Below, one piece after another: positions 4,243 through 51,711 of a stretch of DNA of 64,000 nucleotides. Origin of the DNA: Octopus vulgaris. Lineage: Eukaryota. The stretch spans positions 13,888,001 to 13,952,000 of the forward strand of contig OX597831.1 in assembly GCA_951406725.2 (NCBI GenBank), written 5' to 3'. The notes beneath the pieces are model-generated. The model did not search any database, was not told the DNA's origin, and saw only the letters and a program-made list of their open reading frames with translations. The position numbers were made by a program, and so were the translations under genes. The first letter of the stretch is position 1. Every line of letters starts with the position of its first letter.

Positions 4243-4352
4243 TCAATTCAAACACACCAATATCGGTAGAATAAGAATTGGTAATTTGATCTTTGGAGAC
4301 GGAACACAGGCCGTAGCATAGCAGTCAGTTGTAGGCTGTGGCGGCACTGTAG
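4243..4352 (-). CDS. P1 exon 4, Pro/Thr linker plus hydrophobic tail and stop
   Basis: ttcattgtag acceptor; [36 protein letters not shown]; gtgaga donor at 4215; sequence around and after the stop resembles P2 exon 4. Confidence 0.8.
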
Positions 4353-7300
4353 CTACAATGAATAAAAGACATGGTGTTTAAAACATTTCAATTAAGTCTA
4401 TGTCCTTTTGTCATGTTGTGTCAATCATTGAACTGCAGTCATGCGTGAGCAATGTTTCGCAGTTTCTGCGGAACAAACACTTTTAAAGTCTGTTAAATTT
4501 TCTTTGTTAAATTTACTTTTGTGTAGAGGTTACAAGTTACAAAGATGTAAAATACGAACACTGGTTATCAAGCTGCGTAGTGACAAACACAAATACATAA
4601 TACATACATACAAATCACCGTGAACACCGTGACCGACCAGGCTATCAGATGGTGCTACACATCGCTGGTCACAATGCGCTTTACATTGTTTTAGATTTCA
4701 AATTACGCCATCCCGTTGGCTAAGCGAGCAGGCCAACAGAAGAAAGTTGTGACGAAAGAGTACAGCAGGGATCGCCACCATCCCCTACCGGAGCCTCGTG
4801 GAGCTTTAGGTGTTTTCGCTCAATAAACACTCACAACGCCCTGTCTGGGATTCGAAACCGCAATCCTACGACCGCGAGTCCGCTGCCCTAACCACTGGGC
4901 CATTGCGCCTCCACATATATACAAATAGACATATATAAATATAATCATCAACATATACATAGATGCATTTGTATATGTATGTATATACATATAGATCTAC
5001 ATATGCATATGTATGTATATATGCATATATGTTTATGTATATAACATACGTATTAATGTTACGATAAAAGTAATCTTCATCTATCTAAAGGGATACTTCA
5101 TACTTTTGTAGGATACTAATTTATTGTTCTTCAATAAAAAATAATATCGATAGTGACTTCGGAATTTCGGCCAGATAAGCCATCATCGGACTATGAGGCA
5201 TTAAGTTAATCTTGGCTTTATACTCTGCTAAGATAAATCTTTTCTAAAGTTTCTAGTATTTAGTTGAACGGTAATTAATTTGTAGGGTGGGTTGTAATTA
5301 ATTTGTAGGGTGGGTGGAGCAAGTTTCATTGATAAAATTTGTTTTTATTTTATTGTACAGAATTTATTGTGTCGTTCTTTGTAAGTTTATGTACGTTTAT
5401 GTATGTGTGTCAAATTCAGGTCAAGGGACCGATTTTTAATGGTTAACAAAAGGACGTAGGAAGGTAGAATAATTATTTTGGTCAGCGGATGTGTCGTTAG
5501 TTTTGGTTATCTTGGGTCTTATTGGGTTGAATCCAATGCTTTGGCAATGTAAATGTCAAAGTTCAAAGTATAGACCAGCATTTAAAAACTCACTAATTCA
5601 GCGGGCCTTTTTTTGTTTCTATTTAGAAGATAAAGGCTGTCAATCGATTATGTCATGACGTTTTTAGTATAGAAATGTGTTCAGCTTACGCTTTGATGCG
5701 GGTAAGTGTAAAGGTTGTTGGTATATTTCTCTCTAGAAGTCCCTTGTTCTATAAGCAATAAGATTAATATGGAGAGACTGTAATCTTCGTGTTTTATGGA
5801 AGCAAAATTAGATGACTGTGTTTATAAATATTTCTTCAATTCACTTTCAAATGTGAGCATTTTATAATATATATTAGGTGTATGGATATATGAGAAATGC
5901 GGTCTTATTAAAGGACGTATATATACTCATGTATAAAAATTGGAATAAAATAAATTTTAATTTTTAAAATTGACTTAAATATTTCAAAATTTTAATATAT
6001 ATATATATATATGTATAAGGCGAAAGGCGACTGCAAATATACCACGTGCACTAACCTGTAATACCCATACTTGCAACTTTTGATGCCTTCTTTGTAAATT
6101 ATAGGCGGAACTTAAATGTCACATTCGACATAAGCATTATGACTGACAAAGAAAGAGTACGTTGGCGGATACTCATACATCGAAACCGACGGGTGAGTCC
6201 ATCATATATATATGTGTGTGTGTGTGTGTGTGTGTGTGTGTGTGCGTGCGATTATATATATATATATATATTCGGCGTGCTGGCAGAAACGTTAGCACGC
6301 CGGGCGAAATGCGTAGCCGTATTTCGTCTGCCGTTACGTTCTGAGTTCAAATTCCGCCGAGGTCGACTTTGCCTTTCATCCTTTCGGGTTCGATAAATTA
6401 AGTACCAGTTACGCACTGGAGTCGATATAATCGACTTAATCCATTTGTCTGTCCTTGTTTGTCCTCTCTGTGTTTAGCCCCTTGTGGGTAGTAAAGAAAT
6501 ACATATATATATATGTGAGTGTGTGTGTGTGTGCGTGTGTGTGTGTCTGTGTGTCTGTGTGCGTCTATATATATATATATATATATATATTTGTAATCGA
6601 CTTAATTCGTTTGTCTGTCCTTGTTTGTCCCCTCTATGTTAAGCTGCTTGTGGATAATAAAGAAACATATATATATATATATATACTGTATATCATCTCT
6701 GCAAACAGGGACCGAATAGAACTATAAGAAATTAACACTTGACATATATTGCTATATATATAGTTGTAGATTTTATGAGCATGAAACGTCTGGGGCAAGC
6801 ATTTTGGAATAGCCTCTTTGGCATGACCCATTTGGTGTTAGTGATTCAACGCTGACTAATTTGGGAAAATGCTTATGTTAATCGTGTTCCGTTAATAAAC
6901 TCAGTTGCTGTCTACATTCTCTTCTCTCACATTTTATGTGTATGAGTACATTTTTGCGCACGTGTGTGGTTGCGTGTGTGCATGCGTTTTCGCCAAAACT
7001 TACTTTCCCCCAAGTGGCCAAATCTGTCATCATATTTGCCAAATCGACATTATTGAAACAGCGGCATTCAATCGTTTCATTCCCACAATAATTACGTATA
7101 ATAAACGCCTCACAAATTTAGTTTTGATGTTACCTGAGTATAAACCCACAACATAAATTTATAAAAGTCATTATCGTTTGAAATTTAGTTCACATAGTTG
7201 AAACGTGGATTCTGATAGGAAGATTATTTTCAAAATAGCTTACGTGCACATTTAAACTCCATATATTCTTTAAGGTACATTTCAACACAATACCTGCGTC

Positions 7301-49500: not shown

Positions 49501-51711
49501 AAATAATTCAGAAATATAGTAACGGTTTAAAATGATGAAATATGTGTATCATACAAAATTTATACAAATCATACACATCGTTTGAAAACATGAGTCTGTA
49601 GAATTGGATGAGTAAAAATTTCTTCATGGTAATGTTGTATTTAAACGGCAATATGTATCTAAGCTAAAAGAACGTCATCCCAGCAGTAAGTCATGAGAAT
49701 ATTAGATATATTTCGCCCTTCACGAGGCTTGTCATGAACGTGCAGCCTTCTCGAACGATTTTCTTTTCTCGATACATAAGCAAACGCGAATAATTATTTC
49801 ATTGATATCGATGGGTAACAGCCGAACGGTAAAAACTCGGTAAAGCCAATTGAAACAGTATTGAATTAAAGCAGAGACCTTAACAGCCCAGCAAGAATTC
49901 ATTCTGCAAAAATTCTTTAAATATAAAGGTTGAATAGCTTGGAATACGTGTGCTTATCAGTGTAAGCATGCACGCGAAAAAACACGTGCGTAAGCTAATG
50001 CACATATGTGTGTGTGTGTGTGTGTGTGTGTGTGTGTGTGTGTGTGTGTGTGTGTGTGTGTGTGTGTGTGAATGTGTGTGTGTCTCTGGAGGCGCAATGG
50101 CCCAGTGGTTAGGGTAGCGGACCCGTGGTAGTAGGATCGCGGTTTCCATTCCCAGACCGGGCATTGAGAGTGTTTATTGAGCAAAAACACTTAAAGTTCC
50201 ACGAGGCTCCGGCAGTAGGTGGTGGTAAACCCTGCTATACTCTTTCACCACAACTTTCTCACACTCTTTCTTCCTGTTTCTGCTGTACCTGTATTTCAAA
50301 GGCCCAGCCTTGTCACACTCTGTGTCACGTTGAATCTACCCGAGAACTACGTTATAGGTATACGTGTCGGTGAAATGCTCGGCCACTTGCACGTTAATAA
50401 ATTATCTGCGACGTCACAGGTGCCAAGCTGTATCAGCCTTTGCCTTATCCCTTGGATAACATTGGTGGCGGCGTGGAGAGGGGAGGCCAGTATGCATGGG
50501 CGAATTCTGGTCTTCCAAAAACAAACTTTCCCAGACTTGTGCCTCGGGGGGTAACTTTCTAGATGTAATCCCATGGACATTCATGACCGAAGGAGGTCTC
50601 ACACACACACACAAACATATATATATATATGAGTGTGTGTGTGTGTATATATATATACATATGTATATAAGCATGTGTGTGTGTGTGTATACATATACAT
50701 ACACACACTCATATATATATATATATATATATATATATATATATATTGTAATCACGCAAAATCTAACCTGTCTGATTGATTCATTTTCCACAAAGTTATA
50801 TTTTGCGACTATTATCTTTTCTCGTTATTCACCTGACGATTTCATTTTTATATTACGTAGGCTAACAAAACGAACCTAACTCGTCAGGCATAAGTCAGAA
50901 TGTGGTAATATGTAATTCCTGGCATTAATATTGATCGCACGTCTTCCAAACCGTTCAACCTTTATATCTAAACAAGGGGTTTGAAGTATTTATCTTTACA
51001 TTGTGAACATCATTTAAAGTACTCAGCATAAAAATATGCACTAATAATTGTTTCTTGCTCCGAAAACACGTGGCTAATGATGTTTTCATAACGAGCTTTG
51101 CGTCAACAAGCAACTTAAGACTATGATCACATGATCGTTTTTGTTTGCAAGCCAATACGCTAGTACATGAGAAAATAAAAACCTAAAATCGGGAAGAAGG
51201 TTCATGCAAAATTGAAAGTTGATTAAACGGTAAAGAAAGAAAATTAGGATTACGTCGTGTTTCCCAGTAGAAGGCATAAATAAACTATTTGTTGTAGAGG
51301 AATCCAACAGAGACGGGTGCTAATTTTGCCATACAGTTTCTCAATCGGATGAGAGTGGTAGACTCCAGTTTCCCCAAAAGAAATTTGACCATCTGCTTGC
51401 ATTTGCTGAAAATTTCGATTCTGGAATTAAGTAGAGTGGTGGAATCTTTGTACGGTCATTCTGCTACGCAAAAGTTACGTTACTTTAATCCATTTACATA
51501 TGGCATGGGTTTCTCTACGATTCTCCACTTGATTGTATACGGTGTACAGTCGCTAAATTAGTGACTATACATTCGTGTGTGTGTGTGTGTGTGTGTGTGT
51601 TTGATAGATTTAATGATAATCATATATTAAATACAAACAATTATGAAGATAAAAACATTTGTCTTGTAACTACTTACCGATAATAAAGAGAAAACACAGA
51701 CAATATTTCAT
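46448..51711 (-). CDS. Paralog P3: signal-peptide six-Cys protein; three clear coding exons, C-terminal exon uncertain
   Basis: Exons 51711-51678, 46933-46840, 46545-46448. Protein MKYCLCFLFIIAFPRISECMDARNCPEARKNFHFDDHNQIFCSRILMYKICAEKNKDELCIEALHSYYSSGYFCS... Same phases; exon 2 and 3 lengths (94, 98) equal P2. Confidence 0.8.
46840..46933 (-). CDS. P3 exon 2 (FPRISECMDARNCPEARKNFHFDDHNQIFC)
   Basis: ttttaatttgcag acceptor, gtacgt donor. Confidence 0.85.
50087..50600 (+). mobile_element. SINE family B copy fused to a second repeat tail (also seen at 7975-8175)
   Basis: Head and body as 306-690, then aagctgtatc(a/g)gcctttgcc..cccttggataacattggtg shared with 7990-8035. Confidence 0.82.
51678..51711 (-). 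CDS. P3 exon 1, signal peptide (MKYCLCFLFII)
   Basis: acgATG...ATCG|gtaagt; 34 nt, phase 1. Confidence 0.8.

Follow-up and report, generated by a model that had tools for sequence, protein, structure and literature searches.

A clustered family of small six-cysteine octopus proteins with a domain likely related to the N-terminal domain of RGM

Analysis of a stretch of 64,000 nucleotides from Octopus vulgaris (assembly GCA_951406725.2, contig OX597831.1, positions 13,888,001 to 13,952,000, forward strand; hereinafter, the window) shows that three genes assembled from tiny exons, P1, P2 and P3, belong to a family of small six-cysteine proteins that occupies about 18 loci around the window and recurs elsewhere in the genome. 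The family is best classed as real, expanded and undescribed, with a variant of the N-terminal domain (Pfam RGM_N) of the repulsive guidance molecules (RGMs: RGMA, RGMB and hemojuvelin). By a modest balance of probability, these are tandemly clustered genes for small proteins with predicted signal peptides and one RGM_N-like six-cysteine domain, which would serve as diversified surface or secreted binders and not as co-receptors of bone morphogenetic proteins (BMPs). Literature searches with accessions, locus names and RGM-N terms turned up no publication on an octopus RGM_N-like family; supplementary expression tables may list the genes under other identifiers.

Gene models, their cluster and tandem modules

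The first-pass annotation of the window had proposed three sets of exons, with lengths of 37/97/92, 37/94/98 and 34/94/98, that splice in frame at GT-AG boundaries into proteins with a common cysteine frame, and both the coordinates and the cysteine spacing agree with this proposal. A six-frame motif scan of the window placed three exon-A motifs (Cys1 to Cys3) and the exon-B motifs (Cys4 to Cys6) at the same loci; all boundaries are GT-AG, and the splice phases are 1, 2, 1 in each of the three genes. P1 has the cysteine spacing 5/14/8/7/12, whereas P2 and P3 share 5/16/8/8/13; the pairwise domain identities are 17/57, 14/59 and 14/63. All nine proposed exons were retained, but the list was incomplete, and additional signal-peptide exons (a candidate in P2, and one in P3) as well as terminal exons were added (Table 1). 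Each of the five gene models tried is open, with GT-AG at all junctions, a single stop at the end and a length of 92-121 residues. The N-termini of the P1, P2 and P3 models are hydrophobic, and the C-terminal hydrophobicity peak reaches 2.9-3.1 in P1 and P2 compared to 0.5 in P3.

Three exon-A-like and three exon-B-like spliceable motifs were detected in the window, compared to none in 300 dinucleotide shuffles, a post hoc control in that the pattern was drawn from P1-P3 themselves, so that the additional copies in the flanks provide the better test. Chance open reading frames or an artefact are ruled out by the shuffle control together with the open spliced exon pairs and these copies.

The family, originally described as a set of three genes, turned out to be far larger. 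Refined profiles and tblastn applied to 464 kb around the window revealed a cluster of approximately 18 loci, on both strands, that spans about 290 kb and reaches some 177 kb ahead of the window start and some 114 kb past this start. The profile scan yielded 16 exon-A matches and 17 exon-B matches (one of the latter spurious); both exons were found at 15 of the roughly 18 loci, all 13 spliced exon pairs are open, and the three loci near -163 kb, -93 kb and +92 kb appear to be incomplete or degraded. Further members, the counts of which are lower bounds, were found at C18:16.0-17.3 Mb and C6:103.9-104.7 Mb, including tandem multi-domain genes. In particular, a 50-kb stretch of C6 carries an uninterrupted series of nine A+B modules, all of them with phases 1-2-1, which matches the predicted protein P0007, in which eight domains are recognised, and another protein, P0011, combines four domains with a GPI-like end (GPI, glycosylphosphatidylinositol). 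The domain is a symmetric phase-1 module of two exons and, because the introns on both sides are in phase 1, it can be repeated or copied as a unit.

Independent support comes from annotated proteins of O. bimaculoides, in which the junction between exons A and B has the same position as in P1-P3. A search with the exon-B profile recovered two RefSeq proteins of this species among 504 candidates, and a wider profile recovered two more among 143 candidates; one of the O. bimaculoides proteins, P0008, is likely the orthologue of P1. When 1.84 billion representatives were searched, 12 matches were obtained at E<=0.001, all from O. bimaculoides, O. sinensis or O. vulgaris and all labelled 'uncharacterized' or 'hypothetical'. 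The proposal that the family is lineage-specific fits these 12 matches but is made less certain by two mollusc clusters that a query with P0002 retrieved from the Atlas at 0.92 and 0.90, and by the ease with which such small exons escape detection. No RNA run that contains the stretch comprising exons A and B of P3 is listed among 24 runs, which is not evidence either way.

Two annotated models call for separate comment. In the predicted protein P0013, exon 1 and exon A of a paralogue located roughly 105-114 kb from the start of the window are fused to retroelement-like sequence that matches a frame at window positions 59376-60719, which suggests a mis-annotated member of the family. P0002 and P0008 are filed by RefSeq as isoforms of one locus, yet match different paralogues in the O. 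vulgaris genome, so that either two genes appear to have been merged or alternative splicing might run across them. The family is largely invisible to the Pfam-annotated gene-model route, the usual source of octopus gene-family novelties, because its exons are shorter than 105 bases, the RefSeq labels read 'uncharacterized' and one predicted model is fused to a retroelement.

Relation to the RGM N-terminal domain

The Pfam family RGM_N (PF06535) was matched by six of the 20 family proteins, in two cases above the cut-off, by summed repeats, whereas the best single-domain match had E = 0.014; Pfam gave no match for P0001-P0003 and no RGM_N match for the 33-row family alignment. In the RGM profile test, the score exceeded those of 100 out of 100 cysteine-fixed shuffles, and the alignment of the family with RGM extends from the first to the last cysteine. 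The predicted fold fits RGM_N weakly: a wide fold search was dominated by generic bundles, with which the RGM fold scores were tied, and by matches to long helices that the P0008 model has in its N-terminal part. Foldseek with two predicted models gave no match at E<=0.001, the Atlas structure searches returned weak, unrelated matches only, and phmmer with P0009 alone against PDB did not find RGM. RGM_N recurs in the Pfam, PDB sequence and fold comparisons, and the six-cysteine domain probably represents a stand-alone relative of the three-helix, three-disulfide RGM_N domain. In a tree of 40 family domains and eight RGM domains, which was poorly resolved, RGM fell on a long branch, and no direction of descent could be read. 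The first-pass annotation had not recognised the family; the domain itself resembles that of RGM by Pfam, PDB and the profile test. The folds that it had suggested for comparison (DUF19-like, GDNF-receptor/GAS1, OBP and attractin) are absent from the Pfam scans at E up to 10 and from the fold-search matches listed, which leaves these suggestions unsupported rather than refuted.

The alternative that survives best, although we regard it as unlikely, is that these are real genes but encode an unrelated small helical module with disulfides, which would be neuritin-like or have evolved independently, and that the likeness to RGM_N reflects convergence of a single helix with two cysteines. The stretch aligned with RGM covers about 28 columns, the intron layout differs from that of RGM, the fold scores are level with those of generic bundles, and the Atlas query with P0002 returned, along with the two mollusc clusters, neuritin at 0.85. 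Neuritin has six cysteines. However, this match was lost in a domain-only query (with a different member, P0006), and the neuritin family PF15056 has no match in the genome or in the Pfam scans of the 20 family proteins at E up to 10, so that neuritin membership was rejected on the Pfam results; furthermore, convergence of one helix fits poorly with the recurrence of RGM_N in three kinds of comparison and with an alignment that runs from the first to the last cysteine.

As described in PMC7354924, the RGM N-domain contacts BMP/GDF with the loop that follows Cys5, which has the sequence Arg-Gly-Asp/Asn-Leu, and with a His located further on. This contact motif, RG[DN]L..H, is present in 79 of the 87 RGM domains and in none of the 40 family domains, nor does any of these 40 have a His at +7. 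The RGM C-terminal domain (PF06534), which in RGMs goes with the GDPH autocleavage site and neogenin binding, has no match in the 20 family proteins, and the P1-P3 models end after the domain and tail, with neither this domain nor the GDPH cleavage site. By contrast, a separate RGM gene on C2 carries the N-domain and the GDPH site within one exon. Lacking the contact motif and the C-terminal domain, and having another intron layout, the family members are therefore not RGMs.

The canonical cephalopod RGMs, namely, the one encoded at C2:46683999-46684205 (minus strand) and P0020-P0022, themselves deviate from RG[DN]L..H. They comprise 760-860 residues, compared to the usual 400-550, and the cephalopod RGM may have altered BMP binding. 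The absence of the motif is therefore not decisive in this lineage, and the possibility has to be weighed that the family consists of RGM_N-derived modulators of TGF-beta/BMP ligands, acting either as co-receptors with a GPI anchor or as secreted decoys, in both cases through a re-tuned binding loop; the tandem forms would bind ligand dimers with avidity. The RGM N-domain by itself is described as having high affinity for GDF5/BMP (PMC7354924), RGMs carry a GPI anchor according to PMC10084454, and the genome contains 13 TGF-beta-domain matches. Apart from the complete lack of the contact motif in the family, rapid divergence of the exons is ill-suited to a conserved ligand, and we consider such modulators improbable.

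According to a 2022 review, the RGM N-terminal domain had not been reported outside RGMs. If the relationship proposed here is correct, this domain can stand alone and be repeated.

Divergence of the paralogues and possible functions

The initial proposal of a rapidly diversifying family of disulfide-stabilised proteins, predicted to be secreted or GPI-anchored, is supported by the 12 database matches, all from Octopus, and by the comparison of exons with adjacent introns. In the left flank, four closely related paralogues show identities of 0.82-0.91 in exons A+B, compared to 0.91-0.96 in the flanking introns (p<0.01 in five of the six pairs, which are not independent), whereas exon 1 is identical at 32-34 of 34 positions. 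The comparison of P3 with its nearest paralogue gave 0.71 in the exons and 0.84 in the introns (p=6.5e-5), with 32/34 in exon 1. The ratio of nonsynonymous to synonymous rates, dN/dS, is 0.9-1.6 in close pairs and 0.27-1.06 in distant pairs, from about 40 synonymous sites. Divergence of the domain exons above the intron level fits diversifying selection, without proving it, since homogenisation of the introns could add to the contrast.

The scenario that we prefer starts from the gene structures, which show that the two-exon domain, flanked by phase-1 introns, is copied both as whole genes and as up to nine modules within one gene. The products are predicted to be exported by their signal peptides, most of them, including P1 and P2, with a GPI-type tail and P3 probably without one, and to fold into a small helical bundle held by the six cysteines and a few core residues. 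In the sequence comparison, the remaining residues change faster than the neighbouring introns. With the scaffold fixed and the rest of the protein changing fast, each paralogue would present a different binding face, most likely for a fast-changing partner. Such a partner, non-self or gamete, is favoured over a conserved ligand: non-self or microbial targets are the leading candidates, while still short of an even chance, followed, on an equal footing, by gamete or mate recognition and by neural or developmental signalling (including TGF-beta ligands), then by partners of other kinds, and last by gland secretion.

Gland-secreted effector peptides (salivary, venom or mucus) are a very unlikely explanation for the family as a whole, given that 12 hydrophobic-tail exons in the cluster (detected with a tail profile that was built from eight of these 12) point to membrane anchoring for most members and that no toxin family was matched in Pfam or PDB, notwithstanding the exon-over-intron divergence with a conserved exon 1 and the lack of a hydrophobic tail in P3 and its relatives P0001 and P0006. 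Gland-secreted effectors typically combine conserved signal exons with mature exons that are hypervariable within a cysteine frame, and venom gene families show such a divergence of exons over introns next to a conserved exon 1.

A more far-reaching version of the binder scenario, which is conceivable but doubtful, holds that in octopus the RGM N-domain became a free two-exon shuffling module, amplified to dozens of copies in three or more regions of the genome, in single-domain GPI-anchored, secreted and up to nine-domain tandem forms. Positive selection would have turned these into a variable recognition repertoire, serving immunity, self/non-self discrimination or cell identity, on a scaffold that is not known in such use. 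If the preferred scenario holds, cephalopod biology gains a new diversified repertoire of surface proteins, and the paralogues amount to a natural library in which one small disulfide scaffold is varied. Tissue expression alone would separate the immune, reproductive, neural and gland hypotheses.

Features of the window and comparison with known systems

Table 1. Exons of P1-P3 and a further candidate tail exon, in window coordinates
Feature	Positions	Strand	Remarks
P1 exon 1, signal-peptide start	14335..14371	-	37 nt, ends in phase 1; 87% match to O. bimaculoides P0008 residues 14-28
P1 possible internal exon or remnant	9431..9472 (approx.)	-	80% identity to P0008 residues 33-47; no in-phase acceptor found
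P1 exon A, Cys1-Cys3	8350..8446	-	97 nt, phase 1 to 2
P1 exon B, Cys4-Cys6	7244..7335	-	92 nt, phase 2 to 1
P1 terminal exon, polar spacer and hydrophobic end, predicted GPI signal	4243..4352	-	acceptor 4352 or 4346; 60% identity to P0008 tail
P2 exon 1	16620..16656	+	37 nt
P2 candidate exon 2, second half of signal peptide	29042..29086	+	45 nt, phase 1 to 1; proposed because it resembles exon 2 of P0001 and P0006
P2 exon A	32591..32684	+	94 nt
P2 exon B	35194..35291	+	98 nt
P2 candidate terminal exon, predicted GPI signal	37132..37223	+	
P3 exon 1	51678..51711	-	34 nt
P3 exon 2, completes signal peptide	49425..49463	-	39 nt, phase 1 to 1
P3 exon A	46840..46933	-	94 nt
P3 exon B	46448..46545	-	98 nt
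P3 candidate short terminal exon, without hydrophobic tail, predicted secreted	45773..45786	-	stretch kept in two paralogues
Candidate hydrophobic-tail exon	53255..53347 (approx.)	-	may belong to the adjacent paralogue, which has exons A and B just outside the window end; not confirmed

The intron between exons A and B of P2 contains a perfect 28-base minisatellite of seven copies (34046-34242). Retrotransposon fragments, which we take to be of the non-LTR (long terminal repeat) class, occupy window positions 56474-60719 on the minus strand, with reverse-transcriptase-like and endonuclease-like frames, and smaller pieces lie at 26714-28022 and 35666-36268. Frames resembling transposase fragments, presumably mariner-type, are located at 22365-22709 and 42685-43023 on the plus strand. 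Rfam found nothing in the window.

Among the known systems, the closest is the RGM N-domain, which shares with the family domain a length of about 60-70 residues, six cysteines, the core C-x2-[LI]-x2-Y-x2-C-x7/8-C and a helical bundle, predicted in the case of the family; the signal peptide and, in most members, the GPI tail predicted for the family are also RGM-like. The differences are, however, substantial: the last cysteine gap is 11-13 in the family compared to 21 in the commonest RGM spacings, an intron in phase 2 interrupts the family domain behind Cys3, one RGM gene was found compared to about 18 family loci in the cluster and tandem repeats elsewhere, and the family evolves fast. Neuritin/CPG15 is likewise a small GPI-anchored protein of similar length (anchor described in PMC6502786), but its Pfam family is unmatched in the family proteins and the genome, and the Atlas match, which does not recur for the domain alone, is a lead only. 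Finally, the clustered recognition families of coleoids, namely, protocadherins and the sucker acetylcholine-receptor-like chemoreceptors, are described as having expanded in tandem, in a lineage-specific manner, by whole-gene duplication (PMC9068888), as the present family has. They are, however, built on unrelated domains, and the exons of the present family are so small that they are often overlooked or fused during annotation.
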